58,443 bases of DNA from the IMG/VR virus record IMGVR_UViG_3300031758_000088, positions 1 to 58,443 of that record; one strand, given 5' to 3'. The DNA comes from a virus. Lineage: Duplodnaviria; Caudoviricetes. Position numbers and translations under genes: made by a program. The notes beneath the pieces are model-generated. The model was not told the origin of the DNA and searched no databases. It saw only the letters and a program-made list of their open reading frames with translations. Below, in pieces: positions 20,356 to 51,787 of the stretch. Position 1 is the first letter of the stretch, and every line of letters begins with the position of its first letter.

Positions 20356-20409
20356 TTGTTTCTCCAAAGCAGTGCGGTAAAGGGGCCGCACGAAACCCCA
20401 TGAACGTGA

Positions 20410-20715: not shown

Positions 20716-20718
20716 AAT

Positions 20719-20967: not shown

Positions 20968-20983
20968 TTCCTTTCAAGGTCAG

Positions 20984-21003
20984 CCCCGGCAATCCAGCCG
21001 GGG
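20984..21003 (-). terminator. GC hairpin after tail fibre gene
   Basis: CCCCGGC-AATCCA-GCCGGGG; no strong U-tract. Confidence 0.35.
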
Positions 21004-21010
21004 TAATTGA

Positions 21011-24000: not shown

Positions 24001-25078
24001 CAATTGGAGATGTAGTGCTTCCAGAGCCTGTATAAACAGTTGTGTTGCTTCCGTAAATGTTGAACAAAGACAAAGGCGAACTCGTCCCAACACCCAAATT
24101 CGTCCCATCAAACGTCAGCGCACTCCCCGTGGTCAGGACTTTGGAGCCGTTGAGGTAGGCCACGCCGTTGGCTGTGCCGCCGGACATGACTGGGTTGGCA
24201 GTGAAAGACACCACACCAGTGGAATCTGCAATCTGCATCCCGGCTGTGCCGTCCTTGGCCTTGATGTTGGTCACTTCAAGGTTGGTTAGGTCAAGAGAGC
24301 CGGTCAAAACGATGTTGCCGCCCACAGTGGCATTACCCGCCAAGAACAGGTTACGGGGCCGTGTAGCACCCGATGCGCCAATGTCGTAGGTGTTATCCGT
24401 GAAGATCAGGTTGGATGTGACGGTGCCGTTTACGGTGATGTTGTCCGCCGCTGCGTCACCCAGAGTCACTGCGCCCGAGAAGGTGGCTGCCGCTGCCGCG
24501 AGGGTCCCGGTCAGGGTGGGCGAAGCCGACAGGACGTTGTTGCCTGTACCGGTGTTTGTCACACTCACCACTTCTTTGCTGGAGTTCAGCGCCAGAGCGG
24601 TCGATGCAGTCAGGCCGGACAGCGTGGTCGTGCCGGAGATGGTGACGTTGGTGAACGAGCCGCCACCGCCAGTGTTGCTGATCTTGATGAAGTCAGAGCC
24701 GTTCCATGCAACAACAGCAGATTCGCCCTTGATGATGGTCACACCGGTTGTTGGGCCTGCGCCACGGAACACGATGGACTGTGTGCCGCCCGAGGCGTTG
24801 ATGACGGTGTAAATCTTGGACCGCGCAGGAGCCGTGATGTTGCGAGTCACTGTGCCCGATGCCGGGTTCCACAGGATGATGGCCTGACGCGCTTCGTTGG
24901 CTACGCCGTCCGTGGTGGTCAGCGTGACATCCGCATCGGTCGTCAGGGAGGTTGTGCCCGAGATGGCTGCGTCGATCAACGACGTTCCGGAGTCGTTCCA
25001 TATGTCACCCCAGTTTCCTGACAATTCGCCAGTTACTGGGAGCACGAGGCCGAGAAGAGAGGTGTATGAGCTTGCCAT
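21011..25078 (-). CDS. Tail fibre with about ten E(R/A)MRIxSxGNVGIGTxxP modules
   Basis: Repeated module separated by variable inserts; C-terminal LDDYEEGTFTP..GRYTKIGNRV domain; likely start MASSYTSLLG. Confidence 0.9.
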   Translation of the reverse strand: MASSYTSLLGLVLPVTGELSGNWGDIWNDSGTSLIDAAISGTTSLTTDADVTLTTTDGVANEARQAIILWNPASGTVTRNITAPARSKIYTVINASGGTQSIVFRGAGPTTGVTIIKGESAVVAWNGSDFIKISNTGGGGSFTNVTISGTTTLSGLTASTALALNSSKEVVSVTNTGTGNNVLSASPTLTGTLAAAAATFSGAVTLGDAAADNITVNGTVTSNLIFTDNTYDIGASGATRPRNLFLAGNATVGGNIVLTGSLDLTNLEVTNIKAKDGTAGMQIADSTGVVSFTANPVMSGGTANGVAYLNGSKVLTTGSALTFDGTNLGVGTSSPLSLFNIYGSNTTVYTGSGSTTSPIDDAVTLFVRNSSNTSGTMAMLQLSPTSSTGVTQHAYIGSVSVGGQFAPAIVIGQRTGSATWAERMRISSAGGLSIGTTTDAGAGGLNITGNAVLGDASTDTVQVNGYMGVGGAATSNVGLYLTNTISTGNIQYGIAAAPVGNGTNQINGIWSGPATAASSFTAGTVAAIRAANATKGAGSTITNLYGLVVEDQTQGTNNYGITSLVSSGTNKWNIYASGTAQNYFAGDVGIGTSTSLNASVNTSVSTTKAGYSVHSSGGSGATTGLMFSNTGSYGFIDYDPSSSSGVRFSAFGPLRFGSNTNAAYGSSTFTEAMRITGGNVGIGTSSPAYRLDVVESADSEVSLRVSNQNTGANSIASLYLQGQGNNFYIRNYGDGAASANRTDFISTAGSSYFTFSPTSAEAMRITSAGNVGIGTSSPVGNLDVAGTTPTLNIRDTQSKVSWAAGDIVATLDFYSNDTSGVGAQAVSRIRSVADTASAATSGALAFWTAAAGAAATEKLRITSAGNVGIGITTPTYALDVVGDIQAQGRLLVTAAAPELLLSVPSGGLDSRIYNDGSGNLIFGNGTNSATPTERMRIDSSGNVGIGVIPTVVTHGPHLEVGSTRGTVSIGTGYIEDNGTTQFFNGARPLAFGVSDTERMRLDASGNLGIGTSSPRSLLNPSGSGSTGAVLTLENSNTALTTGNVIGEIDFYANDPSANGTGAKAKIVSVIENSAGNLVGLTFATSDSTSATGVERMRIDSSGNLGLGVTPSAWGSTSTALQNRNASFWATSAAAYLGYNYFFDGSARKYIASSFATEYTQLNGQHIWYTAPSGTAGNAITFTQAMTLDASGNLGIGTNSPAVKLDVSGQIRASTGILFGTDTAAANALDDYEEGTFTPTIIGTTTAGTGTYSSQVGRYTKIGNRVYFSVAITWSAHTGTGNMKISGLPFTSVNTASGFNFLAVGANNLTYTSQLTAFVDVNATTASMATFASAGALTSLAIDTAATVYVSGHYEV

Positions 25079-25086
25079 GATTTTCC

Positions 25087-26055
25087 TTACGCAGCGATCT
25101 GCTGCCAATCCGGAGATTGCGTTGTCCCGACCTGCGCCCAGCCGGGTGATTGAGCGTCATTCACATTTTGCCAGTTTGGAGACTGGGTGTCACTGATTGT
25201 TGTCCAGTTGGCTGTTTGGGTGTCGCCAATCACGCCCCAGTCGGCGTCTTGGATGTCGTTGATCAGGCCCCAGACGTTCACCGAGCCCACGTAGCCCACA
25301 GCGTACACGCCTGTGACCAGCACTGTTGCACCACCAACCACCGCTACGCTGCCAATCTGGCCTTCTGCCTGCACCCCAGTGACGGGGACAATGATGGACA
25401 GGAGAATCGTGACGGTGCCGATCTCCCCGGTGGCCTCTACGCCCGTGACGTCAATGACGCCCGTGCCGGTTACCGTGACTGTGCCGATCTGACCCGTGGC
25501 CTGAACGCCAGACACCACCGCAGTGGCTCCGGCGGCAACCGTAACTGTGCCGACAGCTCCAGTGGCTTCTACGCCCGTAACCGGGACGTTGGCGTCAGCA
25601 CTGACCGTGGCTGTGCCGATTTGGCCTGTGGCTTGAACTCCAGTGGGGAATACGTTGGCGGTGCCCGTGACGGTGACTGTGCCTGTCTGACCGGTAGCTT
25701 GGACGCCTGTGACCTGCACAACCGCGCTGGCTGCAACGGTAACGGTGCCGACTTCGCCCGTGGCCTGTACGCCCGTGGGGAATACATTGGCTGTGCCGGT
25801 TACCGTGACGGTTCCGACTTCTCCGGTAGCCTGTACCCCGGTCGGGAAGACGTTGGCCGAAGCAACAACCGAAACAGTGCCGACTGCGCCGGTTGCCTGA
25901 ACGCCCGTAACAGAAACTGTCGCCCCGGCAGTAACCGTGACAGAGCCAACCGCACCAGTGGCGGTTACGTCTGTGTGACCAACACCCCAGCCTTGGGAGC
26001 CCCAGCCTACGCCGGAAGCACCCCATCCTTCAAAGGCTACGATTGCATTGGCCAC
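25087..26055 (-). CDS. Tail protein with ~20-aa tandem repeats (VTGVQATGxVGTVTV)
   Basis: About 12 repeats plus C-terminal W-x-x-I-x-D-x-Q repeats. Confidence 0.8.
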   Translation of the reverse strand: MANAIVAFEGWGASGVGWGSQGWGVGHTDVTATGAVGSVTVTAGATVSVTGVQATGAVGTVSVVASANVFPTGVQATGEVGTVTVTGTANVFPTGVQATGEVGTVTVAASAVVQVTGVQATGQTGTVTVTGTANVFPTGVQATGQIGTATVSADANVPVTGVEATGAVGTVTVAAGATAVVSGVQATGQIGTVTVTGTGVIDVTGVEATGEIGTVTILLSIIVPVTGVQAEGQIGSVAVVGGATVLVTGVYAVGYVGSVNVWGLINDIQDADWGVIGDTQTANWTTISDTQSPNWQNVNDAQSPGWAQVGTTQSPDWQQIAA

Positions 26056-26065
26056 CTACGCACCG

Positions 26066-26482
26066 TCAAGCAATCCGCACGATTGCCGAGGAGGCGTCGT
26101 TGGTTGGGAACTGGACCGTAAAGTCACCGGCAGTGGACGTTTTGTCAGCGCCGAAGTCCAGAACCGCAATGGCCTTGTTGGACTTGCTGCTGTTGTACAT
26201 CAACGCGCCGCGAGCAGTAATGGTCGCAGTTGACCATGTGGTGTCCGAGAAGTCCACGTAGGCGGTCGTGCCGGACAGGGAGACTGTTGCCCCGGTCAGC
26301 GTGTTGCCACCTGCGGTGTAGCCAGTGCCCACCACCTCGTCGGAAGTGGAATAGGCTGTTGTGGCCGCGCTCAAAGTGGCTGCACTGGTGTACAGGGCCA
26401 ACTTGATGACGTCCGTGTCGAGATCGTGCTCGCCCAGCAGAATCTGCTGTTTGAACGAGGAACAAAGAGCTTGTGTGATCAT
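26066..26482 (-). CDS. Virion structural protein
   Basis: SFK..L..H..D..KLALYT..GY.AGG..L..DF.D..W..TARGA..Y..DFG.DK. Confidence 0.75.
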   Translation of the reverse strand: MITQALCSSFKQQILLGEHDLDTDVIKLALYTSAATLSAATTAYSTSDEVVGTGYTAGGNTLTGATVSLSGTTAYVDFSDTTWSTATITARGALMYNSSKSNKAIAVLDFGADKTSTAGDFTVQFPTNDASSAIVRIA

Positions 26483-26486
26483 GTGT

Positions 26487-27239
26487 TTATCCTACGTAAG
26501 AAAATTTTAGACCCTTAACGGAAGGGTACTCACCGCCGCAAACCCGTTGGATTGATCTTTGAGAAATTCCGGTTTGTTTGGCAGCCTCAGTTCTGCAAGA
26601 GTACACAACTCCTGTTGTGTCGCATTGAATTTTTCTCTTTTTGGATTCGGCCATTCTGGAAATAATTTCCTGCCCATAACGCCGACCCATGCACGCAGCA
26701 CTCAGCTTTGCCTTGGATTCTTCCGACCATACTCTATTTCTGGCGGAGTCGCCAACAGCCTTCTTGCGTTTTTCTTCGTCTATCAGCAATCGGGCTTCCG
26801 CTAACTGTTTTGCAGCAACTGCTTTTTGCTCTGGGTTTTTTGCAAACCACTCCAGCTTTTGCTGCCTATTTCTTTCCCGCTGCTCAGCAGTTCGTTTTTT
26901 CCCAATGTTACTTAAGCGAATCTGCTCTTTCGTGGCGTCATCGTACTTTCGGCCAAAAGTAACCTCGCCCCCGTTGGTCTGGTTGTATGCTGGCGCAAGC
27001 TGCAAGATGATGTCTTTTTCCAATTGCGCCAAGACTTCTTTTTTGACTGCGCTGGCATACTCCTCCACACAAAATGTGGACGCTCCGTATTTTGCAATTG
27101 CTCTGTGAAAGTGTGTTTTTGGCGAACGAGAGTAAGTCACATGATTTGCCCAGCGCCGTGCAACACCAACCGTAGTAAGGCCAACATACTGCTTGCCCGT
27201 TTCGGTGTTTGTTGCTACATAAATGACGCCGTGCTTCAC
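26487..27239 (-). mobile_element. Free-standing GIY-YIG homing endonuclease with NUMOD3-like repeats and C-terminal HTH
   Basis: GVIY..TN..TGKQYVGLT..RW..H; LEK..I..YNQTNGG; more AT-rich than flanks. Confidence 0.88.
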
Positions 27240-36900: not shown

Positions 36901-37087
36901 CGTTTACCTTTATTTTTCGGACGAGGTCTTCAATTTCAAACTGCGCGGTCTGAAGACCCCGAATAAAACCACACAGTTCTTTGTAGTGATCGAAGGACTT
37001 GCACCCTCCGTCACCCACAACTCTTGCAATCTCCACCTCACGCTCTCTCAGCTTTTTGCTGATGTGCTCAAGTATTTGGTGGTCCAT
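36893..37087 (-). CDS. Small conserved post-portal protein
   Basis: G...F..Y...CG.IRGL; overlaps neighbours. Confidence 0.7.
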   Translation of the reverse strand: MDHQILEHISKKLREREVEIARVVGDGGCKSFDHYKELCGFIRGLQTAQFEIEDLVRKIKVNDD

Positions 37088-39576
37088 TACTGCCCCTTAC
37101 CGCCCATTGGGGGCGTTGCTTGTTGAGCCATTTTTTGCTGAGCTTCTTGCTGCTGAAGCATCATCTGCTGTTGTTTGGCAGCCATCTCCATGGCGTGGAC
37201 TTCCTGCATCTGAGAGATTTCAGTCTGCAATCGCTGGTAGGCAAGTTCTGGGTCTTCGCCGACCTTTTGCGCAGCTTCCCGGGCCTTGAGGCCAAGCTCT
37301 TCTGATTTGAGTTGGAGGTCTCCGCGCACCTTCATGCCCTTGATCTGAGCCTCTTGCTCTTTGATCTTGAGCTCCTGCATCTGCATTTGGATGACGGGGT
37401 CCTGAGCTTGTTGTTGGGCCTGCTGTTGAGCAGCCTGACCCTTGCTCTGAGCCAGCACCTGCTGAGAGGCCATGGCAACCATCTTTGCCAGCATGACCTC
37501 TGCCTCTTCCGGCATCTCGGTGTTGGGAGCCGGAAGAGGAACACCCAACTGCTCCTCGATCTTCTTGCGGTAAGCAAAAGCCAAGTGCTCGGATACGTGG
37601 GCCATGATCTCGGCCTGCATCTTCTGAGCTTGAGGGCTCTGACCAATCTGCGCCATCAGCAAGGGGTCTTGCAACATAGATGTATGGACGGCAATGTGGG
37701 CATCGTGGTCTTGGTAGACAAAAGCCTTTGTGGGCTTTCCCGTCAAGAAGGCCATGTTCTCCGACACTGGGTCACGAGGTGTCATGTCATCTTCGATGGG
37801 CACAAGCTTGTCTGCGTTCTTGATACCCAGCACCTCAATCATCTGACGGTGCAACTGCGGCAGGTCGTAAATCTGAGGGGCTTGAGCCGACAACTGAATG
37901 ACGGCTTGGTACTGCATGATCCGCTGGGCCATCGTGGCGCTGTTTGGATCAGAGACTGGGATCACCTCAACGATGTCGTAGTCCTCCCGCTTGGCGGCAG
38001 GCTTACCACCCATGGGCATGTAGTCATACTCTGCGGGGGTGTTGTCTCGGATGATCTCTTTGAGGAGCTTGAACTCCTCCTTCATCGAGTTGTGGACCCG
38101 AGCCTGAACCGCGCTCATGGTCTTGAGCTGGCGCTCCAGAAGAGCCAGAGTCGTACCCACGGGTGCATTGGCACCCATGTCGCTGATCTTCATGTCTGCG
38201 ACTGATCCCAGACGGCGAGCTTCCTCTGTGATGCGCTCAAGCAACCCAGCCAGAACCTGTGAGGGCTCTTTGTAGGGCAGGGGCATGATGTTGTCACGCA
38301 TGGTCCCGGACGGAACGTCCACGTCGCGCCACTCACCGGGAGCAATTGGGGTGTCATCTCCCTTGATCCTGAGACCACGGGTCTTCACACCACCGGGCAG
38401 GTTAGCCAGAGTACCTGCGTCCACCAGTTGGCGGATGATGGAAGTACCGGCACGGGCATAGCCACCGATGACGTGGATTAGGCCCAGACCATAAACACCA
38501 AAACCGGGGATGTAGGTGTACTGAACGAAGTGCTGACGGCGCAGCTTGAGCTTGTCTTCTTCGTTCCAGTTGCGGCGGATCGACAGAACCTTTGTGGTGG
38601 CACGGTCGATGGTCACAACGTAGGGAAGGGCAATCTCATCCTCATCCTCGTACCCGGGCATATCGTAGTCAACGCACATCTCCAGAAGCTGGTAACGGTT
38701 GTCCTCGTTTAAATCGTAGCCCTGCTCTTCGGCTTTTTTCTTCTCAATGTCTGTGTTGAACATCTGGGGCTCACCCAGATCAACATCGCGGTAGAAGCCT
38801 GCGACTTGAAGCTTCTTGATCTCATTCTTTGTCTTGCGCATCACATGGGTTACACGCTCTGCGGTGCGGGCGTTGGATGCGCCGTAAGGAATGATCAGGT
38901 CTTCTGCGGGGATGAAGATGGCGACCTGCCTGCCCATGCTGGGGTCGAAGTAGATTTTCTTGAAGGCCGAACCGGCCAAACCCAAGTTGTAGAGCATGCG
39001 CTCATGCTCAGGGCGGTACTCGGGCATTTGCTCGGTCAGCTTGTAGTTCATGTCCTCCCGGACACGCTCGGCTGCGTCTTCTTTGAGTTTGTCGATTGCG
39101 CCAATGATCTGCGTCTTGACGGGGCCTTGAGCGGGGAAGGTCTCGATGATGGTCTCGGACTGGAACCGGATGGCAGCCTCTGTTAGGACTGTGGAGTAGA
39201 CCCCGCAGGCACCCTCCCAAGGTTCAGTGCGTTCTTCATACTTCATGCCGAGGACCTCAAGTCCTCGCACATACATGTCTGCCCATTCTTTGCGGGAGGA
39301 GACGTCGCTCTCGTACTCAGCGATCAGGTCTCCGGCCAGCTTGCCCAGCTCTCCCTCGTCCATGAACTCGGCGAGGTTGGCACCAAAATCTTCGGCGGTC
39401 TCCTCATCGGGCATGAGGTCGATGGTCATGCCGTCGAGGCCGATTTCGACATCATCCGGGTTGTCGATCATGATCTCGATTGCGGGGGTGTCGTCTTGCT
39501 GGATGTCGTCGATGCTTAGAGGGGGCATGCCCAAAGGGGCTCCACCAATGCCGGGGACCATATCTGATGCTGCCAT
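37087..39576 (-). CDS. Portal protein
   Basis: 829 aa after terL; SRKEW..PW.GA.GV..EA.IRFQ..YGLGLIH..RQLVDAGTL.NLP; Q-rich tail. Confidence 0.88.
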   Translation of the reverse strand: MAASDMVPGIGGAPLGMPPLSIDDIQQDDTPAIEIMIDNPDDVEIGLDGMTIDLMPDEETAEDFGANLAEFMDEGELGKLAGDLIAEYESDVSSRKEWADMYVRGLEVLGMKYEERTEPWEGACGVYSTVLTEAAIRFQSETIIETFPAQGPVKTQIIGAIDKLKEDAAERVREDMNYKLTEQMPEYRPEHERMLYNLGLAGSAFKKIYFDPSMGRQVAIFIPAEDLIIPYGASNARTAERVTHVMRKTKNEIKKLQVAGFYRDVDLGEPQMFNTDIEKKKAEEQGYDLNEDNRYQLLEMCVDYDMPGYEDEDEIALPYVVTIDRATTKVLSIRRNWNEEDKLKLRRQHFVQYTYIPGFGVYGLGLIHVIGGYARAGTSIIRQLVDAGTLANLPGGVKTRGLRIKGDDTPIAPGEWRDVDVPSGTMRDNIMPLPYKEPSQVLAGLLERITEEARRLGSVADMKISDMGANAPVGTTLALLERQLKTMSAVQARVHNSMKEEFKLLKEIIRDNTPAEYDYMPMGGKPAAKREDYDIVEVIPVSDPNSATMAQRIMQYQAVIQLSAQAPQIYDLPQLHRQMIEVLGIKNADKLVPIEDDMTPRDPVSENMAFLTGKPTKAFVYQDHDAHIAVHTSMLQDPLLMAQIGQSPQAQKMQAEIMAHVSEHLAFAYRKKIEEQLGVPLPAPNTEMPEEAEVMLAKMVAMASQQVLAQSKGQAAQQQAQQQAQDPVIQMQMQELKIKEQEAQIKGMKVRGDLQLKSEELGLKAREAAQKVGEDPELAYQRLQTEISQMQEVHAMEMAAKQQQMMLQQQEAQQKMAQQATPPMGGKGQ

Positions 39577-39585
39577 GTCAATTCC

Positions 39586-41082
39586 TTAATAGAAGGCGTT
39601 ACTCTTGCGGCGGAAATACCGCTGCTCTTCCGGCTCATCCGACTCGATTGGGATGAAGCCGCCCCTTCTAAACCGAAGCAGCGCTTGGCTTGAGGAGTCA
39701 ACAAGGTCGTCATGGTCCCCGTTAGGGAATGCCGCCAACTCTTCCATCAACTCATCTGCCCATCTTGTTTGTGGGCACCAAACAACTCCCGAGGCAAAAA
39801 GGTCCGAGATTGCGTTTACACGCGCAATCTTATCGCTTCCTTTGCCCGGTGTGTACTCTGAAAGCGGAATTCCCATCTGCCTGAGCTCATAGATCAAGGG
39901 AGCCCCTGCGGCTTTCTTTTCCACGATCAATGTGTCCGGCTCCCACTCTTTGTACATCTCAAGAGCCTTCTGTTTGAGCTCAGGGAACTCCATACGAGCC
40001 TTCACTGCGTCCAGACAGATGATGTTTGGCTTCAGATCGCCATGTTGGTTGGGGTGTTGAAAGACACCCCACGTTGTGCAAGCCGAATAGTCGGACCGGT
40101 TGGACTTCTCGAAGGCCGTGTCCCAACTTTGGATGATGTATTCACAAGCGGGAGCGACGTCCGACTCCCAAATCCGCCAGTGATCACGCTTGATGATCGC
40201 ATTTCCCTCGGATGTGGGGTTCTGTTGGTACTGCGCTTCCCATTTGGAGACGGGAATCTCGGCCTTAATGGCCTCGAGCTCCTCTTTCTTCCAAAATCCG
40301 GGCCAAAGAGGGTTGCCCGAGGGCAAAATTGCGGGGAATTCGATGACTTCCCACTCATTTACACCGTCTTTTTCGGAGTTTTTCAGTATTTGCCCGGTCA
40401 AATCTCTCTTTGACCAGCGTGTCATCACAATGATGATGGCTCCACCGGGCTGTAAACGCTGCCGAGGGCCGGATGTGTACCACTCATACACATTGTCAAA
40501 GACTGCGGGGTTGCCCTGCTTGGCTTCCTGCTCCGAATGGGGGTCGTCAATGATCAAAAGATCAGCGCCCTTACCTGTTACCGCGCCACCAACACCAATC
40601 GCGAAGTAGTCACCACCTTTGTCCGTGTTCCAGCGACCTGCGGCCTTTGAGTCAGAGGACAGTTTGGTGTCAAACGCCCGGGAGAAGGTCTCGGACGATA
40701 CGAGGTTCCTCACCTTGCGGCCAAAACCCACAGCCAGTTCTGCGGTGTGAGCAGTCTGGATGATCTTCTTCTCGGGGTACTTCCCCAAGAACCACGCCGG
40801 GAGAAGGTAGGAGGCAAACTCGGACTTGGTGTGCCGAGGAGGCATGTTGATGATGAGCCTCTTCAACTCACCTTTTGCAACACGCTCAAAAGCGTTGGCC
40901 ATGATCTGGTGATGTTTCCCGGAAATGAACCCGGGCCACATGTGGGAGGCGAAGTAAATGAACGACTCCCTGCACTTCTCCACCCTGTCGTATTCCAACA
41001 ACATCATGATCTTGGCTCTCTCATCATCTGCGACGAGAGGAATCAACTCACGGTACTTCTCCACCTCCTGACGAGTCATCAT
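39586..41082 (-). CDS. terL: Terminase large subunit
   Basis: PPRHTKS Walker A, LLIIDDP Walker B, TRW, SWDTA and HDDLVD nuclease motifs. Confidence 0.95.
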   Translation of the reverse strand: MMTRQEVEKYRELIPLVADDERAKIMMLLEYDRVEKCRESFIYFASHMWPGFISGKHHQIMANAFERVAKGELKRLIINMPPRHTKSEFASYLLPAWFLGKYPEKKIIQTAHTAELAVGFGRKVRNLVSSETFSRAFDTKLSSDSKAAGRWNTDKGGDYFAIGVGGAVTGKGADLLIIDDPHSEQEAKQGNPAVFDNVYEWYTSGPRQRLQPGGAIIIVMTRWSKRDLTGQILKNSEKDGVNEWEVIEFPAILPSGNPLWPGFWKKEELEAIKAEIPVSKWEAQYQQNPTSEGNAIIKRDHWRIWESDVAPACEYIIQSWDTAFEKSNRSDYSACTTWGVFQHPNQHGDLKPNIICLDAVKARMEFPELKQKALEMYKEWEPDTLIVEKKAAGAPLIYELRQMGIPLSEYTPGKGSDKIARVNAISDLFASGVVWCPQTRWADELMEELAAFPNGDHDDLVDSSSQALLRFRRGGFIPIESDEPEEQRYFRRKSNAFY

Positions 41083-41312
41083 AGAGAAGCTACCCCCTTC
41101 ACCGTCTTATCTAGAAGCTTGATCGAATTGAACTTGTGGGGCTTGATCACCAACAGTCCCTCATCCTGAAGGATGTGAATCACCCGGTGGATGTTCGACT
41201 TACTCTTCAATCCCAACCCCCGAGCAATCACGGAATACGACGGCGGGACGCCGTGTAAACGCACATACGCACGGATGAAGTCCAATACCAATTGATGCTT
41301 TTCATTCAACAT
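41079..41312 (-). CDS. Stand-alone LexA-type winged-helix DNA-binding protein (no peptidase domain)
   Basis: Q.VLDFI..Y...GVPPS...IA..LGLKSKSNIHR.I..L...G; ATGA overlap with terL. Confidence 0.85.
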   Translation of the reverse strand: MLNEKHQLVLDFIRAYVRLHGVPPSYSVIARGLGLKSKSNIHRVIHILQDEGLLVIKPHKFNSIKLLDKTVKGVASL

Positions 41313-41544: not shown

Positions 41545-42183
41545 CTACGCCTTCTTCGCCTTGAGTGGCTTGACGTTGTCCAAGAGCTTGAGGTGACCCG
41601 ACAGCTCCTTGCGCAACTGCTCTGCTGTGGGCTTCTCTGCCACTGCTTCAGTGGTCTGTTGGAACATTCCAGCCGCTCTGCCCATCAGTTCCAGTGCTTT
41701 CAACCGGGAGCCTTCCTGCTTGCCTCCCTTGCTGAGTGCCAACAGCTCCTTCAACACATATCGTTTCGTTGCCGCCACATCCTCTGCCAGCACTTCCACT
41801 GTCTCGCCCCATGCTTCATTCAGCATCTTCTGGATGCGTTCATCCCTGCTCAGTCTGTATGCGGCGCTGGTGATAACTTGGTCTGATCCCTTGGCGTTTG
41901 GGTATGCATCCCTGTAGGCTTGACGCATGGTTTTCCCAGCGATCATGCCTTTGGCGAACTCCATTGCTGATGGCGTGAGAGGTGGAACTCTCTTGTATTC
42001 CTCTGTTCCTCTTGGCTTTCCGTCTACCCTTATTACTGGAGGTTCTGCCTTAGCGGCTAACCGTTCCGCTTCGCTGAGTTCCGGGCCTTCATCGATGTAT
42101 TCATCCCCCGGCAGATGTGCCGCTTCCAGCGCCTCCAGCAGTTGGTCTTTCGTGGCCCTTCCGGGTCTTCCTGTCTCGCTCAT
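41545..42183 (-). CDS. terS: Terminase small subunit
   Basis: LT....FA.....G.....AYR.AY..A.RL..ALELMG pattern; upstream of terL. Confidence 0.8.
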   Translation of the reverse strand: MSETGRPGRATKDQLLEALEAAHLPGDEYIDEGPELSEAERLAAKAEPPVIRVDGKPRGTEEYKRVPPLTPSAMEFAKGMIAGKTMRQAYRDAYPNAKGSDQVITSAAYRLSRDERIQKMLNEAWGETVEVLAEDVAATKRYVLKELLALSKGGKQEGSRLKALELMGRAAGMFQQTTEAVAEKPTAEQLRKELSGHLKLLDNVKPLKAKKA

Positions 42184-42193: not shown

Positions 42194-42226
42194 CTGTGGT
42201 TTCATCCAGCCTGTCTGTTTAAACAG
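42194..42226. promoter_or_regulatory. Tandem E. coli-type LexA (SOS) boxes
   Basis: CTGTGGTTTCATCCAG (42194-42209) and CTGTCTGTTTAAACAG (42211-42226), both CTG-N10-CAG; near-box CTGTATAAACATACAT at 42386-42401. Confidence 0.6.
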
Positions 42227-42237
42227 CTTCGTTCGCA

Positions 42238-42332
42238 TTATCCACAGCCTGTGGATAACGTCAACTTGTCCACAACCACCTGTGGATACTGTGGATAACT
42301 CTGTCCACAGCTTATCCCCAGCTTTATCCACA
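42238..42332. promoter_or_regulatory. Cluster of eight DnaA boxes (oriC/datA-like)
   Basis: Perfect TTATCCACA or complement at 42238, 42250, 42290, 42324; 1-2 mismatch boxes at 42266, 42281, 42301, 42312. Confidence 0.9.
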
Positions 42333-42680
42333 CCCTCTCTTTTGTGTACCTCAGTGCTAATGTAATGCTCCAAAGTAAGCTAGTACTGTATAAACATACA
42401 TGGCTCTAAAATCGATTTAAACGGCCCTTCCAGCCACTTTGACCCTTACCCGCCACTACCCCCCTAGGAAGTCGTTTGACCCCTCTTCCTGATCGTTTTA
42501 ACGAATATCAGTACTTGCTTATACTTAACGAAAGTACTCACTTTCACATTAGTACTTTTTAGTCCAACTCACCAGAATGCACCCAACATATATAGATGCA
42601 GTGCATCTGGCACTGTCCCTGTAGACCCCCTGCAATCACCCCATCATCTGGAGTACCCACACAAATCACTCGGGTATTGT

Positions 42681-42711
42681 TTGACACCTGTTTACACGAT
42701 AGTGGTATCAT
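42681..42711 (+). promoter_or_regulatory. Early promoter TTGACA-19-TATCAT (extended -10) with GTTTACAC in spacer
   Basis: Hexamers at 42681 and 42706; TGn before -10. Confidence 0.6.
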
Positions 42712-42922
42712 TCGTCCATGCACTAGCAATAGTGCTGATGTGAACGGCCCACGATACGGTCGGTCTGAGGCGAAACCCGGAGGAAGTCCGGGAGCAAGTC
42801 AGACAGGGTTCAAGCCCTGTACCTGTCCACCGTGACGGTAGATAAAACATCCCCTATGAGATGCCAACGTGATGCCCATGCTGTGGGCATTGCAGTGCCA
42901 TCTTGCACTGATTGGAGACCCC

Positions 42923-43081
42923 ATGCAAAAACTCATTGACCGATACCGTGCCAACCCCACTGATGCCAACGCCCTCGCAGTGCTGGCCTATGACCGCAAG
43001 CACCCCTTCGCATCCATGTTGTTGTCGAAAGATGACACCCTTTTGGTTGCCCGTCTGATGGTTGCTGATTCCTACGCTTGA
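42923..43081 (+). CDS. Early hypothetical protein
   Basis: GGAG SD; MQKLIDRYR. Confidence 0.65.
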   Translation: MQKLIDRYRANPTDANALAVLAYDRKHPFASMLLSKDDTLLVARLMVADSYA

Positions 43082-43139
43082 TTTCAGCCTGAAGCCCTCT
43101 GGGCTTTGGAGTGCAATCCCGCACCCTTTGGAGACCATC

Positions 43140-43421
43140 ATGCAAATCACCCTGTCCTACGTTCAGTCCTTCGCCCTGTCTGCCCTCAAGACAGCCCAGC
43201 GTGAGTTCAACAAAAACCCATCCAGCACCAACTTCGAGGTGCTGACCCGTGCAATGGTCACCCACCAGCAAGCCCAGCACGTTGCCCGTGTCCTGCGCTC
43301 TCAAGACAACGTTGACCTGATGCTTGAGCAACTGTCTGCCCTGCCATTGGGTGACTGGCCTGACCTGATCGTCAAACGTGCCACTGGCCTGACCATCCGT
43401 GACGTACTGACCGCCGCCTGA
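43140..43421 (+). CDS. Early hypothetical protein
   Basis: GGAG SD; strong codon bias. Confidence 0.7.
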   Translation: MQITLSYVQSFALSALKTAQREFNKNPSSTNFEVLTRAMVTHQQAQHVARVLRSQDNVDLMLEQLSALPLGDWPDLIVKRATGLTIRDVLTAA

Positions 43422-43483
43422 TTTCAGCCTGATGCCCTGCCGGGCATTGGAGTGCAATCCGTTTAAACACCTGAAAGGAACCT

Positions 43484-43831: not shown

Positions 43832-44410
43832 ATGACAATCAACAACCGTGAAGACTGGCTCTCTGCCGCCGTCTCTGAACTGCGCCCCTTCTTTGATGCG
43901 GTGTGCTCACCCTTGCCAACGAACGTTCGTGTTTCGTGCGGCTTCCCGTCCAACGCCAAACGCAGTGGGGCCATCGGTGAGTGCTGGGCAGACACCGCCT
44001 CTGCTGATGCAACCTTCGAGGTCTTGATCAGCCCTGTGCTGGATGACCCCCTGCGGGTGTTCGATGTGTTGGTGCATGAACTCTGCCACTCGACTGCCGG
44101 GGCCATGAACCACGGGGTCAACTTCCAGAGCATCGCCCAGAAGATGCATCTTGAGCCCTCTGCTGGCCCCAAGGGCTGGAAGGCCACTGGCCCTGCCGCC
44201 TCATTCGTCCCCACCTTCGGGGCAATCGTGGACTCGCTCGGCCCTTACCCTCACGCCGCCCTGACCATGAACACCAAGAAGGTGCAGACCACTCGCATGC
44301 TCAAGGCTGTGTGCCCCTCTTGTGGCTACACCGTGCGCCTGACTTCCAAATGGGCCGCTCTTGGCCTTCCCTCTTGCCCTGTGGACAGCGATGTCCTGAA
44401 CCTTGTTTAA
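43832..44410 (+). CDS. SprT-like zinc metalloprotease with C-terminal Zn ribbon
   Basis: LVHELCH..HG..F; CPSCGY..CP. Confidence 0.8.
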   Translation: MTINNREDWLSAAVSELRPFFDAVCSPLPTNVRVSCGFPSNAKRSGAIGECWADTASADATFEVLISPVLDDPLRVFDVLVHELCHSTAGAMNHGVNFQSIAQKMHLEPSAGPKGWKATGPAASFVPTFGAIVDSLGPYPHAALTMNTKKVQTTRMLKAVCPSCGYTVRLTSKWAALGLPSCPVDSDVLNLV

Positions 44411-44423
44411 ACGGAGAACTGCA

Positions 44424-45881
44424 ATGACTGACCTGCAAATCAAAATCGAAATCTTGAAGCTTCCCATTGGTGTGGTGTTGGGTGCTTACGCCCTGCGGGG
44501 TGGTGGCACTTTCCCCGGCACACCAGCCGAGCAGAAAAGCAAGGCCGCCGACTACCTTGTCAGTTGTGTCCGGGCCAACAGCCTGACCCTCGCCGACATC
44601 AAAGCCGCCACCCCTGTGGCTGTGTCTGCTGTTCAAGGCGCAGACACCGCCGCCGTGGATGCCGTGGGGTCTGTTGCAAACCGTGCAGAGGCCGCCGCCC
44701 TCAAGGCCATCGAGGCCGTCAAGAGGTTTCACCAGAAACTGTCCGATGAGTTGGCAGATGACCGCAATGCCCGGATTCAGGATGATGACACCCTGCGCAC
44801 CGAGATTCGGGACATTGCCAAGAAGCTTGGCGAGACCAAGATTGATGACCGTAAGGTAGAAGAGGCCGTCAACAAGGTTGTCGCTGATGCCTTCGCACCT
44901 TTCCGCAAAGCAGTCGAGGCCGCTGGTGCTCAGTCTGTGGTCGCAGACCTTTCCTCTGTTCATGTGGTGGGCAATGTGACCTGCTTGAAGCTTTTTGGTG
45001 TAGAGGTGCTGGATCGTAAGGGTGACCCCCTCAAGGTGGACATCTGGAATGACCCCTCTGCCCCGGCTGTTGATCCCAACTTCATCTGGACTGCCGACAT
45101 CCTCCAGCACCTGATCCTGTCTCAGGACTTGGGCGAGAACGTCTGGTTCGGTGGGCCAAAGGGCACTGGCAAGTCTGAGACCGCTCGACAGTTTGCCGCC
45201 ATGACAGGCCGTGCGTTTAAACGCATCAACTTCCACAAGTACACCTCTGCCGAGGATTACATCGGTGCAGTGGGTCTTGAGAATGGGCAGACCGTGTTCA
45301 AGCGTGGTGACTTCCTTGCCGCCTTCACACACCCTTCCACTGTGATCCTGTTGGATGAGGTGACCAACGCTGATCCCGGCGAACTGGCCCCTCTCAACGG
45401 GTTCCTTGAGCCCAACAGCGCCGTGTCCTTCGGTGGGTCTGTCCAGACCCGTGCCCCCGGTGTGCTGGTCTTTGCCGCCGACAACACGCTGGGCAACGGT
45501 GATGACTCGGGCCGCTACGCTGGCACACGCCAGATGAACAGCGCTCTGGTTGACCGCTTCGCCCGTGTGGTGCAGTTCGACTACCTCCCCATCATGTCCG
45601 AGGTGGACGCTGTGGTGCGCCACACTGGGTGCGACATCAAGCTTGCCGCCCACATCCTTGGTGCTGTGCGTGTGGCCCGTGAGAAGGTGCAGACAGGCGA
45701 GGTCATTGATGCCCCCTCCATTCGGTCTGTGATTGCGTTTGTCCGTGCCCTGCGGGTCTTGCCCGTGGACAAGGCGTGGGCATCCACCATTGCCGCCCGT
45801 CAACCAGTTGAGTCCCTCCCCGGTCTCACTGCCATCTACCTGTCTTGCATCAACGAGACAGAGATTCAAAAATACCTGTGA
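44424..45881 (+). CDS. MoxR/CbbQ/CobS-like AAA+ ATPase
   Basis: GPKGTGKS, ILLDEV, ADNT.G.G....Y.G..MN.ALVDRF, S.R. Confidence 0.9.
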   Translation: MTDLQIKIEILKLPIGVVLGAYALRGGGTFPGTPAEQKSKAADYLVSCVRANSLTLADIKAATPVAVSAVQGADTAAVDAVGSVANRAEAAALKAIEAVKRFHQKLSDELADDRNARIQDDDTLRTEIRDIAKKLGETKIDDRKVEEAVNKVVADAFAPFRKAVEAAGAQSVVADLSSVHVVGNVTCLKLFGVEVLDRKGDPLKVDIWNDPSAPAVDPNFIWTADILQHLILSQDLGENVWFGGPKGTGKSETARQFAAMTGRAFKRINFHKYTSAEDYIGAVGLENGQTVFKRGDFLAAFTHPSTVILLDEVTNADPGELAPLNGFLEPNSAVSFGGSVQTRAPGVLVFAADNTLGNGDDSGRYAGTRQMNSALVDRFARVVQFDYLPIMSEVDAVVRHTGCDIKLAAHILGAVRVAREKVQTGEVIDAPSIRSVIAFVRALRVLPVDKAWASTIAARQPVESLPGLTAIYLSCINETEIQKYL

Positions 45882-45888
45882 GGTTCAC

Positions 45889-47499
45889 ATGAACATCGAA
45901 ACCATTCTCTCTCGCCCCTCCGTGCGTGGCCTTGAGTTCCGTCTGGGTCTGGAGGCCTTCGCCCACAAGGTGGGCAACTCTCTGGGTCTGCGCCGTGTGT
46001 CTGTCTACTGGCGGCATGATGTCCAGACCGCTGGCATCAACTCGGATGGCAACCTGTACCTTGCTGGCATCCCTGATGACTCCACGGTGAGCCGTGCGCT
46101 GGTGGTCAAGTATGCGGGTTATGTGGTGCATGAACTGTTGCACCACAAGTACACCGACTTCCATGCAAGAGGTGATAACGACTACATCCGCACCCTGCAC
46201 AACGCCGTGGAAGATGGCTGGATCGAGAACACCGGGATTGCCTCTGGTCTGCTCGGCAACATCGGCCCCCTGCTGGGTGAGTTGATCGACACCATGACCC
46301 GTGAGGCATTGGCGACCGTCAAGGATTGGAACGATCCCCGCCAGTACCCCTACATCCTCGCAGTGGCTTGCCGTAAACACGCCACTGTCAAGGTTCCCTG
46401 CAACCCCCGCCTGACTGCCATCTTTAACATGGCGGCGGTGAAGTGCGAAAGCGCAACGTCCAGCACCGACACCTTGAAGATTGCTCTGTGGGTTTACGAA
46501 CAGATCAAGCAACAGAGTCAGAAGCCCGACAAGCCCAACGACAAGCCCGATGGTCGCCCCGGCAAGCCCAAGGATGGCCCTACAAATGGTCAGGATGGGC
46601 CTACAAGCCCCGATCAGGGTGAGGACAAGGGTAAGGGTGCGGAAGAGGGCAAAGAGGCTCCTGCGGCCCCTGATGCGCCCGTCCAATCCCCTGTTGATGT
46701 CGAGGCAAGGGAGGTCGAGCCCAAACTGCCCAGCGGTGGGGTGATGGGCAACTACACCTCCGAGCAAATCCGAAAGGGTAGCGGTTGCCTTCGGGACACC
46801 GAGCGGGATGGTCTGGAGACTGCCCCCATCCCTGCAAAGCTTCGCTATGAGGTCAAGCGCCTGTTCGACAACTCGGGTCTGACTGAGTTCAGCCGCAACC
46901 GCAAGGCTGGTGTGGTCAACGTCCATGCCCTGCCATCTGTGGCCACTGGTAACGACCGTGTGTTTAAACGCCGCCTCGATGTGGAGGGTGTGGACTCTGC
47001 GGTTGTGATCTTGCTGGACATCTCGGGTTCGATGTTCGACAACGACCACGGCAAGAAGCCTCGCATTGGCCCTGCTGTTGCAACGTGCCGTGCCCTGCTG
47101 GAGACGCTTGATGCGGCTGGGGTCAAGACTGCGGTTGTGGCCTTCGGGTCTGCCGTGTTTGAGATCAAGCCCTTCGGCATGAACCATCGCAAGGGCAACA
47201 CCCTGATCGGGCGTGTCAGCCCTGCTGGTGGGACAAACGACTACACCGCCCTGCGCTACTCACATGAGTTGCTGGCACGGCGCAATGAACACCGCAAGTT
47301 GGTCTTCGTGATCACTGACGGGTACGGCAACCCCGGTGGGGTTCGCCAACAAATCCAGTCCGGCAACGCGCTGGGTGTGACAACCATTGGTGTCGGCATC
47401 AAGGCCGATGTCTCTGGCATCTACGGCAACGCCGTGGCAGTGAATGACATCGCTGACATCGGTGCTGTTTCGTTTAAACAAATCAAGCTTGCCGCTTGA
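45889..47499 (+). CDS. CobT-like VWA protein with N-terminal HExxH domain
   Basis: HELLH..NAVEDGWIE; MIDAS DISGS, GGT, ITDG. Confidence 0.88.
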   Translation: MNIETILSRPSVRGLEFRLGLEAFAHKVGNSLGLRRVSVYWRHDVQTAGINSDGNLYLAGIPDDSTVSRALVVKYAGYVVHELLHHKYTDFHARGDNDYIRTLHNAVEDGWIENTGIASGLLGNIGPLLGELIDTMTREALATVKDWNDPRQYPYILAVACRKHATVKVPCNPRLTAIFNMAAVKCESATSSTDTLKIALWVYEQIKQQSQKPDKPNDKPDGRPGKPKDGPTNGQDGPTSPDQGEDKGKGAEEGKEAPAAPDAPVQSPVDVEAREVEPKLPSGGVMGNYTSEQIRKGSGCLRDTERDGLETAPIPAKLRYEVKRLFDNSGLTEFSRNRKAGVVNVHALPSVATGNDRVFKRRLDVEGVDSAVVILLDISGSMFDNDHGKKPRIGPAVATCRALLETLDAAGVKTAVVAFGSAVFEIKPFGMNHRKGNTLIGRVSPAGGTNDYTALRYSHELLARRNEHRKLVFVITDGYGNPGGVRQQIQSGNALGVTTIGVGIKADVSGIYGNAVAVNDIADIGAVSFKQIKLAA

Positions 47500-48719: not shown

Positions 48720-48757
48720 AAGGGGGGTGAAGCTTGGACTTCACCCCCCTTCTCTTT
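48720..48757. terminator. Terminator hairpin between convergent operons
   Basis: AAGGGGGGTGAAG-CTTGGA-CTTCACCCCCCTT 13-bp stem. Confidence 0.85.
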
Positions 48758-50450
48758 AAAACATATCCAGATTCTCTGAGTATGTCCCTGCCGTCTTGTT
48801 GAAGATCAGGGTTGTTTCCCCTTGAGTCCCTACCCATCGGTAGCGGCACTTCCAGACAGCCAACTCCGTGTAGTTGTCCTTCCTGTGGATCGTCAGTCCA
48901 CAGTCTGTCTTCGCCCACCACGCCATCGAACCACTGATCGACATCCCGTCTGGACGGGGCTGTTCGACACCAGAGCGATTGATCTTGCTTGGATGGGCGA
49001 CAAACCATGTGTGTACATCATGAGCCATGCAGAACTTCTTGACCTTCGTCAGGATGTCGCTGATGGCATTCGTCTCCGTCTTGTCTGACCCCGGCATTTC
49101 AATGTAGTTGTACGGGTCGATCACCAGACCACGCACCCCCATTCGCTTCACTGCCGCCTTCGCCCTTGTCAGGATCGACTCGAGGGTGCTGGGTTCTTCG
49201 CCGTTGGTGTCGATGAAAAGGAAGTGGTCATTGACCCATTTAAACGCATCCATCTTTGCGCTCTCGCTCATCCTGTCCCGGCCTTCGTAGAAGGATTGAA
49301 ACGTGTAAAGTTCCATGAGGCGGGTGATGTGAACCTCGGGCTGGTTCTCAAACGAGCATATCGCAAACTTCCAATCCGATGACCTTGCGAGATTGACCAT
49401 CAACTGGTCAACGAAATTCGACTTGCCACTGGACGGGTAACCCGTCACCACAGTCATCTGCCCCGGTGCGACTGTGTAGATGTTGTCCACCGACTGATAC
49501 CCTGTGCTGAACCCTCTGCCCGTGCCCTTGGTGTAGAGGTCGTTGATCTTGTCGATGAATGAGGTTGCTTCTGAAATGCCGTTGATGGGGTACGGCTCGG
49601 CGTCATTGATGATCTTGTTTAAACGCTCCACCGGCGTGTCGTCTGCCGTCGGGTCGTCGTCGAGCCATGCTTCGTTTAAATCCTTCCACCCGAACTTGGC
49701 GAGTCTGCATTTCTCTTTGCCGATGCGCCTTGCCAACTCTTCTGCCAGCGCTTGACCGGGAGGGTCTTGATCTGTAGCGAGAACAACGTAGGGTGCGGCA
49801 TCAATGATCTCTCGGGCATTCCAGACAAACCCAAACTTCTTGTCCTCTGTCGGTAGCACCTTGCCATCTGCGACCTTGACGGGAGCGCCACCGGGAACAC
49901 TGACCACGTTGGCGATACCCGCCTCGATGGCTGTCAGGCAATCCATCTCGCCTTCGACAATGATGAGGGGCTGGCCCTTCTCTACCTTATCGATGCCAAA
50001 GAAGTCATGCGCTCCACCTGCGTCTTGGGTGAAGTCCTTGGCCTCGATGCTTCGGTACTTCGCTGAGACCAGCGCCCCACTGCGGTAGTAAGGGAAGCCA
50101 ATGGCCTGTGTTGGTTTGCTGAGTCGGGAGAAGAACTTTTCCGCTGAGAACAGACGCATGGCATCTGCTGTGATCTCCGATATGCCCCGTGACTTGAGCC
50201 ACTGGTAATGTTGATGGGTGAGCCTGTTGTTGACGATTGTTGCGGCAGGGACTGCTGACAATTTGTTCTCCTTGGGTTGCACTGAACCCGATGCATAGCA
50301 GTGATGGCAGTGATAGACAACGGCCCCGTCACTCTTGCGGGTGAGGGTCATGTCCTTGACGTTTTGTTTTCTGCGGTCTGGAGTGCAGAAGGGGCAGATC
50401 ACCCGTGTCGAATCATTGAAGTATGTATCCGCTACGAGCGCTTCGATCAT
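48756..50450 (-). CDS. T7 gp4/Twinkle-like primase-helicase
   Basis: CPFC..CHHC zinc-binding domain, IVEGEMD TOPRIM, TDQD.PG, KDLNE, GYPSSGKS, VIDP, AHP, ISGS. Confidence 0.95.
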   Translation of the reverse strand: MIEALVADTYFNDSTRVICPFCTPDRRKQNVKDMTLTRKSDGAVVYHCHHCYASGSVQPKENKLSAVPAATIVNNRLTHQHYQWLKSRGISEITADAMRLFSAEKFFSRLSKPTQAIGFPYYRSGALVSAKYRSIEAKDFTQDAGGAHDFFGIDKVEKGQPLIIVEGEMDCLTAIEAGIANVVSVPGGAPVKVADGKVLPTEDKKFGFVWNAREIIDAAPYVVLATDQDPPGQALAEELARRIGKEKCRLAKFGWKDLNEAWLDDDPTADDTPVERLNKIINDAEPYPINGISEATSFIDKINDLYTKGTGRGFSTGYQSVDNIYTVAPGQMTVVTGYPSSGKSNFVDQLMVNLARSSDWKFAICSFENQPEVHITRLMELYTFQSFYEGRDRMSESAKMDAFKWVNDHFLFIDTNGEEPSTLESILTRAKAAVKRMGVRGLVIDPYNYIEMPGSDKTETNAISDILTKVKKFCMAHDVHTWFVAHPSKINRSGVEQPRPDGMSISGSMAWWAKTDCGLTIHRKDNYTELAVWKCRYRWVGTQGETTLIFNKTAGTYSENLDMF

Positions 50451-51397: not shown

Positions 51398-51668
51398 CTC
51401 TCCTCCGCCGGATGGATAATTTCCACCCAAAGACCCCCTACCCCACGGGATGTGAGGAGAAGGGGAAGGTTCCACCCCTGCAAAGCAGGATCATCATGTT
51501 ACGGATTGTCCGTATACCCTCGGCTTGATGATGCGACCAGCCGCACGGATTCTTCGGGAACTGCCCCCTAGACCATAGGTCATACCGTGTCGCGGTTTTC
51601 TTCCGAGCGGCCCCACTTGCGGCCCCTGCTGTCGTGCGGAGTACGGCGGGGCGTGGAAAGTACAGACG

Positions 51669-51787
51669 AAAAAAAGCCGTTAGAAAAGACCCCGGTGGAA
51701 AAACATCCCCTTGTGGAGGACGCTACCCCATACGGGGTCGGAGTCTTATCTAACGGCTTTCACTTCGCTTGGTTTCCACACCTAGCA
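51669..51787 (-). ncRNA. C4-antisense/attenuator-like small RNA ending in a U7 terminator
   Basis: Stem 51673-51694/51739-51760 with two inner hairpins; unpaired UUUCCAC complementary to GUGGAA sites. Confidence 0.6.

Follow-up and report, generated by a model that had tools for sequence, protein, structure and literature searches.

Clusters of DnaA boxes are known as bacterial replication origins, as the datA and DARS regulators and as promoter operators, and in phages they are almost unstudied. Auxiliary DnaA boxes also occur in iteron origins such as P1 oriR, RK2 oriV and pSC101, which need a Rep protein encoded by the element together with its iterons, and DnaA stimulates the pR promoter of phage lambda. 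The sole clear phage precedent that we found is a proposal made for T5, itself untested there: T5-like phages conserve eight boxes in non-coding DNA, with pairs 3 bp apart and inverted repeats (bioRxiv 10.1101/866236). Here we analyse IMG/VR virus record IMGVR_UViG_3300031758_000088, a contig of 58,443 bp from an uncultured tailed phage (the window, taken throughout at its full length), in which eight DnaA boxes are packed into 95 bp (42238-42332) upstream of terS, the gene for the small terminase subunit. This array appears to be a new form of the known kinds of DnaA-box cluster (oriC, datA/DARS and DnaA-regulated promoters). We suggest that these 95 bp form a conserved docking site for DnaA of the host and that they most likely serve as a phage replication origin dependent on this initiator, an assignment that is put forward tentatively.

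A scan of IMG/VR with the large terminase subunit (TerL) returned at least 595 relatives, of which the best 80 (80-99% identity) were examined, and the array is the most conserved non-coding feature of this large uncultured clade. Were it an origin, it would provide a case of a lytic-type phage started by the host initiator alone; were it a gate on the late promoter, it would represent a new coupling of late genes to replication through titration of host proteins. These two roles are not mutually exclusive. Dense box clusters in several unrelated viral contigs suggest, moreover, that the phenomenon may be general.

Architecture of the DnaA-box array

The array comprises four perfect copies of TTATCCACA, three boxes with one mismatch and one box with two mismatches, arranged in both orientations. 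Seven of the boxes come from a motif scan and the two-mismatch box from reading by eye, and the total matches the four perfect and four near-perfect boxes of the preliminary description of this locus. The array occupies non-coding DNA 55-150 nt upstream of terS, between the divergent leftward late and rightward early operons; terS starts at 42183 on the minus strand and the plus-strand genes run from 42923, which confirms that the boxes sit at a transcriptional divergence point.

Box B1 (42238-42246, plus strand) is perfect and forms an inverted pair, with a 3-nt gap, with the equally perfect B2 (42250-42258, minus strand). After 7 nt follows B3 (TTGTCCACA, 42266-42274, plus strand), whose single mismatch at position 3 gives a word that is a natural DnaA box in high-GC bacteria. 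Box B4 (GTATCCACA, 42281-42289, minus strand), found by the motif scan, lies 6 nt further on, has one mismatch at position 1 and is abutted in tandem, with no gap, by the perfect B5 (42290-42298, minus strand). The remaining three boxes form a plus-strand tandem that begins 2 nt beyond B5: B6 (CTGTCCACA, 42301-42309), which was read by eye, carries two mismatches and is confined to the subtype represented by the window; B7 (TTATCCCCA, 42312-42320), with one mismatch, follows after 2 nt; and the perfect B8 (42324-42332) follows after 3 nt, with its CACA end towards AT-rich DNA. Boxes B3 and B5 are conserved in a 12-sequence alignment of relatives (alignment A1), in which B1 is unchanged except at box position 3.

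This density is far from what chance would provide. The whole 58-kb contig contains four perfect boxes, all of them in the array, as compared with about 0.45 expected by simple arithmetic for 58,443 bp and both strands, and with none for a reversed control word. Seven boxes with at most one mismatch fall inside the 95-bp array versus seven across the remaining 58 kb, and the maximum number of boxes per 95 bp in 200 first-order Markov simulations was one (183 runs) or two (17 runs).

Conservation of the array among relatives

The survey of relatives that had been recommended with the preliminary description shows the array to be a constant feature of the clade. The terS gene was located in 63 of the 80 loci, and 49 of these have at least 330 nt of upstream DNA; the other 31 loci were dropped for want of a terS match or of sufficient upstream sequence. 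All 49 contain three or more boxes within the interval from -330 to -40 relative to terS, and 41 contain four or more, with a box density of 17.3 per kb in this interval versus 0.35 per kb elsewhere in the same loci. A prior-free count of 9-mers over 42 unique upstream regions returns TTATCCACA as the commonest word, with 116 occurrences. Five whole genomes of the clade contain 18 perfect boxes between them; 15 are located in the array, and of the three outliers two are found about 1.2 kb away in one genome (G004).

The motif stays constant among relatives and persists down to 47% identity of TerS, whereas the number of boxes (3-9), their spacing and their distance to terS vary. The nearest box lies at about -62 in one group of relatives; in another, which makes up about half of them, an insert of about 110 nt shifts the array to -158 to -244. 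The commonest pairs of neighbouring boxes in relatives are inverted, with gaps of 3, 6, 7 and 4 nt, the 3-nt gap being the commonest class, and the three-box relatives retain a tandem pair 3 nt apart at -62/-74.

Boxes that deviate from the consensus are informative as to the protein that reads them. Among 104 one-mismatch boxes drawn from 43 unique regions, the change falls at position 1 (21 boxes), position 3 (35, all G), position 5 (26), positions 4, 6 and 7 (six each) or position 9 (four), and positions 2 and 8 are never changed. Such a spectrum fits TT(A/T)TNCACA, the published definition of the DnaA box as quoted in bioRxiv 10.1101/866236, and would thus correspond to the tolerance of DnaA itself.

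It is very improbable that the boxes are something other than DnaA sites, namely operators for TerS or for a LexA-like phage protein, or host origin DNA joined to the contig by misassembly. Repeats upstream of terS are a frequent binding place of small terminases, so the location would suit such an operator, and the boxes are assigned to DnaA from sequence alone. On the other hand, their mismatch spectrum is DnaA-like, and Bac_DnaA_C, the profile for proteins resembling DnaA domain IV, matches none of the five clade genomes. Binding sites for TerS itself were considered and rejected: TTATCCACA is still the motif in relatives with TerS down to 47% identity, and a second clade, with a TerL that shares only 31% identity with that of the window, has this motif unchanged. 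Misassembly of host DNA, the possibility that the preliminary description had named as fatal to its own interpretation, is likewise rejected, the array being present in 49 of 49 relatives and flanked on both sides by phage genes on single contigs. In addition, megablast and blastn searches against GenBank phages and PLSDB plasmids gave no match for the contig or the array region, which therefore is not a recognisable captured plasmid or phage origin. Taken together, these observations make it highly probable that the array is a selected set of host-DnaA sites, as opposed to a chance cluster or a piece of host DNA.

Replication genes and the polymerase contrast

The sole recognisable replisome gene of the window encodes a Toprim primase fused to a DnaB-type helicase, similar to T7 gp4 (48756-50450, minus strand). 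Genes for a PD-(D/E)XK exonuclease and for a Sak annealing protein likewise lie to the right of the early genes. The earlier statement that the window contains a primase-helicase and no polymerase or recognisable initiator holds as far as profile and open reading frame (ORF) scans reach. PolA is absent from all five clade genomes scanned, four of which are rated 100% complete. The large ORFs of the window are structural or have no family match, its small early ORFs have no match in Pfam or PHROGs, and searches of the same two collections found no initiator, loader or partition family among these small ORFs or among the neighbours of the array in the second clade.

The window is a complete IMG/VR record, rated 93% complete and 'linear'. 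Alignment to the complete relative G001 shows that its missing portion of about 6.9 kb corresponds to G001 20332-27231, which holds the end of a giant ORF, a protein with sigma-70 region 4 and small ORFs, and contains no ORF large enough for a polymerase. The sigma-70 region 4 protein (260 aa; PF04545, E 2e-16) is encoded at L094 3077-3859, equivalent to G001 23077-23859, in the segment that the window lacks, and the clade probably carries its own sigma-like factor.

The PolA of related phages provides a contrast. It is described as a core gene of HTVC023P-type relatives (PMC9599517). Phages DSL-LC04 and 023Pt_psg01 both carry PolA and have no box cluster; they contain zero perfect boxes, and one-mismatch boxes are dispersed through them about as often as the reversed control word. 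A sister branch of the second clade (76% identity) has no boxes in any of the seven loci with upstream DNA; the third PolA-bearing relative without the array, G007, belongs to this branch, its genome being 90% complete. In two sister loci that were inspected (L223 2860-3160 and L227 2815-3110), the place of the array is taken by dense arrays of TTAGCAATG/TTAGGGATG repeats in both orientations, some of them in 11-12-bp phasing. At L223 the repeats lie on both sides of an AT-rich segment of about 120 nt, a layout that resembles that of an iteron origin. For the second clade, any comparison of PolA content is limited by box-bearing genomes that are only about 50% complete.

No iteron array was detected elsewhere in the window by Tandem Repeats Finder. 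A second divergent non-coding gap of about 290 nt (51480-51770), between the helicase operon and the exonuclease/Sak operon, is GC-rich and shows no repeats by eye.

Plasmid-like maintenance, which the preliminary description had entertained for a DnaA-opened origin, finds no support in the gene content. Phage_integrase is absent from all five clade genomes; no partition or telomere family turned up in the general ORF scans, which did not include a dedicated search for ParA/ParB families; and a scan of 185,579 species genomes recovered only six fragments of metagenome-assembled genomes (MAGs), of 1.5-5 kb, with no prophage or plasmid copies seen.

AT-rich DNA and a candidate origin

The DNA that follows the array on the early-gene side (42333-42600) is AT-rich, as had been stated, and indeed it contains the stretches of lowest GC content in the contig, whether these are taken at 40 nt (starts at 42381 and 42497), at 100 nt (starts at 42495 and 42323) or at 200 nt (start at 42361). 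It includes four AGTACT words and a near-LexA box (42386-42401). Among 39 unique relatives, the 60-nt stretch poorest in GC within 300 nt on the early side belongs to the lowest 1% of its locus in 27 cases, and at a cut-off of 5% the number rises to 37.

A phage that encodes neither an initiator nor a polymerase must initiate replication somewhere, and the array with its AT-rich DNA is the sole origin-like structure found. For these reasons, together with the lack of the array in polymerase-bearing relatives and the iteron-plus-AT-rich layout of the sister lineage at the same position, a replication origin is the role that we favour. The host-DnaA origin of the preliminary description thus becomes the leading candidate. 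Further support comes from the tandem B6-B8, whose 2-3-nt gaps correspond to the spacing preferred in vivo by Escherichia coli DnaA (PMC11317965). At such an origin, host DnaA would occupy the boxes and contribute to melting of the AT-rich DNA alongside, and transcription from the strong early promoter close by would probably assist in this. The phage gp4-like primase-helicase, or host DnaB, would then be loaded at the opened site, and host polymerase would copy the genome. Later in infection, the phage exonuclease and the Sak annealing protein would drive recombination-dependent replication, yielding concatemers for packaging. Since the array lies on or beside the late promoter, occupancy by DnaA would probably affect transcription of the terS operon as well.

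Several observations weigh against an origin. The AT-rich block of about 230 nt, like three of the boxes, is peculiar to the subtype of the window, with 3 of the 12 aligned sequences, and in G001, a close and complete relative, no stretch next to the array stands out by its AT content; the shorter AT-rich minima of relatives may just reflect the early promoter, a candidate for which falls inside the same 300-nt interval. Inverted pairs dominate in relatives, unlike the head-to-tail arrays of oriC, and some relatives are down to three boxes. We know of no phage origin fired by DnaA alone and of no link between a gp4-type helicase and DnaA, and our literature searches surfaced no phage origin of that kind. 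Very few evolutionarily independent events underlie the polymerase contrast. Neither GC skew nor cumulative skew, suggested earlier as a check, gives a usable signal for an origin, the skew being about zero along the 42-kb leftward arm and confounded by gene orientation. Finally, the fixed place ahead of terS and the overlap of B1 and B2 with a predicted promoter fit a transcriptional or packaging role equally well.

In the basal unwinding system of bacterial origins, co-oriented boxes 2-3 bp apart lead to DnaA-trios, whose pattern is described as a box, a spacer of 0-16 nt and at least three NAN triplets (PMC8287927, PMC10721633). By eye, no run of NAN triplets is seen next to B8; the published pattern is itself very permissive.

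A late-promoter gate as the main rival

Three features of this region had escaped the preliminary description. First, two boxes overlap a predicted sigma70-type promoter of terS, TTGACG-16-GATAAT (42237-42264, minus strand), a call made by consensus scan only, with 10 of 12 matches; the complement of B1 contributes GATAAT, the putative -10 hexamer, and the spacer is taken up by B2. Second, a LexA-type palindrome, CTGT-N8-ACAG (CTGTCTGTTTAAACAG, 42211-42226), lies between the array and the terS start codon. No other site of this form occurs in the window. Exact copies are present in 25 of 43 unique upstream regions, nearly always at -43 or -26 from the ATG of terS. Third, the same operon contains a gene for a 77-aa protein that consists of a LexA DNA-binding domain only (41079-41312, minus strand; PF01726, E 2e-10); this gene, which lacks the cleavage domain, immediately precedes TerL in 77 of the 82 loci in which it was looked for. 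The overlap with the promoter, the adjoining conserved palindrome and the LexA-like gene make a transcriptional role a serious rival to the origin.

In such a role, DnaA and a LexA-type repressor would hold the terS operon off at low copy number, and their titration or cleavage, as copies accumulate and replication produces SOS signals, would switch the late genes on, so that the array would act as a timer coupled to replication; the LexA-DBD-only protein would feed back on the CTGT-N8-ACAG box. We regard this as possible though less probable than an origin. The constancy of position agrees with it: in all 49 loci the array lies 40-330 nt from the gene that opens the late operon, and it keeps this place in nine of nine loci of the second clade. 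So does the tandem pair of the three-box relatives, which corresponds to the 'double box' unit of DnaA-regulated promoters (PMC11317965), and a precedent is offered by the late promoter P3 of GIL01, which carries LexA boxes and is reported to be activated by the truncated LexA homologue gp6 (PMC6182141). The geometry, however, varies: the insert found in about half of the relatives leaves the array farther upstream, and in this group a different -10-like word, TAGCAT, adjoins the LexA-type box. The -35 hexamer of the predicted promoter is not conserved in alignment A1, and five to eight strong boxes far exceed the need of known DnaA-regulated promoters. Late transcription may instead be driven by the clade's own sigma-70 region 4 protein, and a timer leaves the loss of the array in polymerase-bearing relatives unexplained.

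Origin and late-promoter gate can also be combined. In a clade with neither polymerase nor initiator, an array that mimics oriC would fire replication through host DnaA alone and, together with the LexA-type operator, would keep the late promoter off until replication had titrated or inactivated the host proteins. We hold this combination to be conceivable if doubtful. It would imply that the sister lineage swapped the DnaA boxes for other repeats and that the module is exchangeable.

The palindrome GTTTAAAC is a separate peculiarity of this genome. It occurs 21 times in the window versus 0.51 copies expected, a number that no shuffle of 100 came near, and 30 times in the 62-kb relative G001. 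Its sites (for example 343, 4909, 41320, 42217, 43461, 43793, 44405 and 53836) lie mostly inside ORFs and share no extended consensus. A protein of the phage might bind there, for instance the LexA-like 77-aa one.

DnaA-box arrays in a second clade and in unrelated viruses

Arrays of this kind extend beyond the clade of the window. In the second clade, nine of nine loci (TerL at least 80% identical to the query) carry five to seven boxes 440-610 nt upstream of TerL, where a small ORF immediately after the boxes separates them from that gene. At least 117 viral stretches contain the inverted double box TTATCCACA-N3-TGTGGATAA; of the 80 that were analysed, 12 fall in the window's own TerL clade, and several unrelated ones, the second clade among them, contain dense clusters of 6-19 boxes within 150 nt on either side. 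The genes next to these unrelated clusters are varied and include an SPP1-type portal, a RecD2-like helicase and DUF932. One contig (L146 6997-7202) contains 15 boxes in about 200 bp, with three inverted double boxes 52-54 bp apart, and further very dense clusters occur in the unrelated contigs L098, L117, L142, L153, L174 and L099/L164.

The recurrence of the array directly upstream of the terminase genes in two clades so distant in TerL bears on a third explanation, in which DnaA-bound boxes would form an architectural element, either as a packaging accessory near terS, comparable to IHF at lambda cosB, or as a T5-like injection stop or membrane anchor. The 3-nt pairs of T5-like phages are found here too, and inverted arms of 28-36 nt flank the whole array in two of five relatives tested. 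The CTGT-N8-ACAG palindrome, at its fixed distance from terS, could be a terminase site as opposed to an operator. Nevertheless, the position of the array differs among the contigs of four complete relatives, and fragment ends are not piled up at one coordinate, which points to permuted or arbitrarily opened assemblies. We know of no role for DnaA in packaging, the T5 role is itself only a proposal, and the polymerase contrast is left unexplained. We therefore judge an architectural role unlikely.

Somewhat less likely still is manipulation of the host DnaA pool, by which the array, as a passive sink or in the manner of datA or DARS, would shut down or deregulate oriC with rising phage copy number and free polymerase and nucleotides. 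The dense, strong consensus boxes would suit it, as would their presence in polymerase-less genomes and absence from polymerase-bearing relatives, and the way B3 faces B4 and B5 is reminiscent of the DARS core, whose box I points against boxes II and III. In E. coli, extra copies of datA repress initiation, and extra DARS2 is reported to cause extra initiations and growth inhibition (PMC5742627). A sink, however, needs neither a fixed site ahead of terS in two distant clades nor shrinkage to three boxes, and the essential boxes of datA are co-oriented and accompanied by an IHF site, unlike the mixed orientations seen here. A single incoming genome could not titrate DnaA, and by the time hundreds of copies are present the host is probably lost. 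The datA-like sponge of the preliminary description thus retains a small share of the probability, with the fixed position ahead of terS unaccounted for and the orientation rule of datA not followed.

Genomic context of the array

The leftward late arm extends from 42183 to position 2, with every gene on the minus strand. It includes the genes for TerS, the 77-aa LexA-like protein, TerL, the portal and proteins of head and tail, as well as a giant ORF that continues past the end of the contig. The first gene of this operon, terS (41545-42183, minus strand), matches phrog_51 and phrog_1595 and has AGGAG 7 nt before its ATG. It is followed among the packaging genes by those for TerL (39586-41082, minus strand), assigned from family matches of the Pfam/PHROGs type and protein comparison, and for the portal (37087-39576, minus strand). 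In TerL, the window shares 54-58% identity with Pelagibacter phage HTVC027P, phage DSL-LC04 and phage 023Pt_psg01. The giant ORF (2-6538, minus strand; more than 2,179 aa) has no PHROGs match in its window part, and its continuation in relative G001 (L094 16-2487) contains an LPD38 'large polyvalent protein' domain.

On the other side of the array, the plus-strand early genes comprise three small ORFs, a phrog_6361 protein and a CobS-like/CobT-like pair that ends at 47499; the pair (44403-47499, plus strand) consists of a CobS-like MoxR-type AAA+ ATPase and a CobT-like VWA protein. The candidate early promoter (TTGACA ... TGgTATCAT with an extended -10; 42681-42711, plus strand) reads away from the array and is conserved in alignments A1 and A2; this putative assignment was missed by the consensus scan because its spacer is 19 nt long. 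Downstream of it, the early operon begins with a structured leader of four helices (42745-42839, plus strand), for which RNAalifold on 16 sequences gives 26 pairs, nine of them with compensatory changes. The leader contains a T-arm-like hairpin, ACAGGG-TTCAAG-CCCTGT, and a variable hairpin, and a further hairpin lies at 42875-42887. Searches of the region with Rfam (at gathering thresholds and at E<=1) and ARAGORN found no Rfam, tRNA or tmRNA match. An intergenic unit of about 40 nt that contains a hairpin is repeated three times (42860-42920, 43075-43136 and 43415-43460), each copy immediately preceding the ribosome-binding site of one of the small early ORFs.

Hints as to the host are few. 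Two of the six MAG fragments were binned to Burkholderiales and the others to unrelated taxa, a weak hint only; a Burkholderiales-binned fragment also bears the array. The host label of the relative DSL-LC04 adds a further indication. CTGT-N8-ACAG, which we take to be the SOS-box form of beta- and gammaproteobacteria, offers another.

Comparison with known systems

Our literature searches surfaced no description of a DnaA-box array in this clade, and its likenesses are best drawn system by system. The array resembles oriC in its dense consensus 9-mers, in both orientations over about 100 bp, with AT-rich DNA alongside; in the window the likeness extends to the order of elements, tandem boxes 2-3 nt apart being followed by a short GC-rich stretch and then by AT-rich DNA. 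Seven boxes with at most one mismatch and one with two fall within 95 bp, a clustering well inside the few hundred base pairs characteristic of oriC. It differs in lying in a phage, with no dnaA, dnaN or gidA nearby, in the predominance of inverted pairs among relatives and in the subtype-specific occurrence of the long AT-rich block, and from sequence it is a candidate member of the oriC class only. Iteron origins share with the array the presence of DnaA boxes beside AT-rich DNA in a mobile element that would use the host polymerase, but neither a Rep protein nor iterons were found here, which places the array outside that class.

With datA and DARS the array shares the form of a compact non-coding cluster of strong boxes. 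Its likeness to the DARS core, in which the spacing too is fixed, concerns the orientation of B3, B4 and B5. No IHF-type site (consensus WATCAANNNNTTR, as generally known) is seen by eye within 42238-42332, which sets the array apart from the definition of datA. The essential boxes of datA are described as co-oriented and associated with an IHF site (PMC5742627), whereas here orientations are mixed and relatives carry three to nine boxes.

The array also recalls DnaA-regulated promoters and their 'double DnaA boxes' (PMC11317965), its boxes overlapping or adjoining a predicted promoter and forming pairs 2-3 nt apart, although it contains many more boxes and its distance from the promoter differs between subtypes. 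As at the P3 promoter of GIL01 (PMC6182141), the late operon is preceded by a LexA-type box, and the genome includes a gene for a LexA DNA-binding domain that has no cleavage domain, both being predicted features here; GIL01, unlike this phage, is a temperate Bacillus tectivirus without a DnaA array.

The closest phage counterpart is the eight-box array of T5-like phages. In both cases a lytic-type tailed phage carries about eight conserved non-coding boxes with 3-bp pairs and inverted repeats; in the window the gaps of B1/B2 and B7/B8 are both 3 nt, and inverted arms are present in two of five relatives. The role of the boxes in the iss region of T5-like phages is hypothesised only (bioRxiv 10.1101/866236). 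T5 is described as having its own polymerase, origins mapped elsewhere and its boxes in the terminal repeat that enters first during two-step injection, whereas the phage analysed here has no polymerase and its array heads the terS operon.

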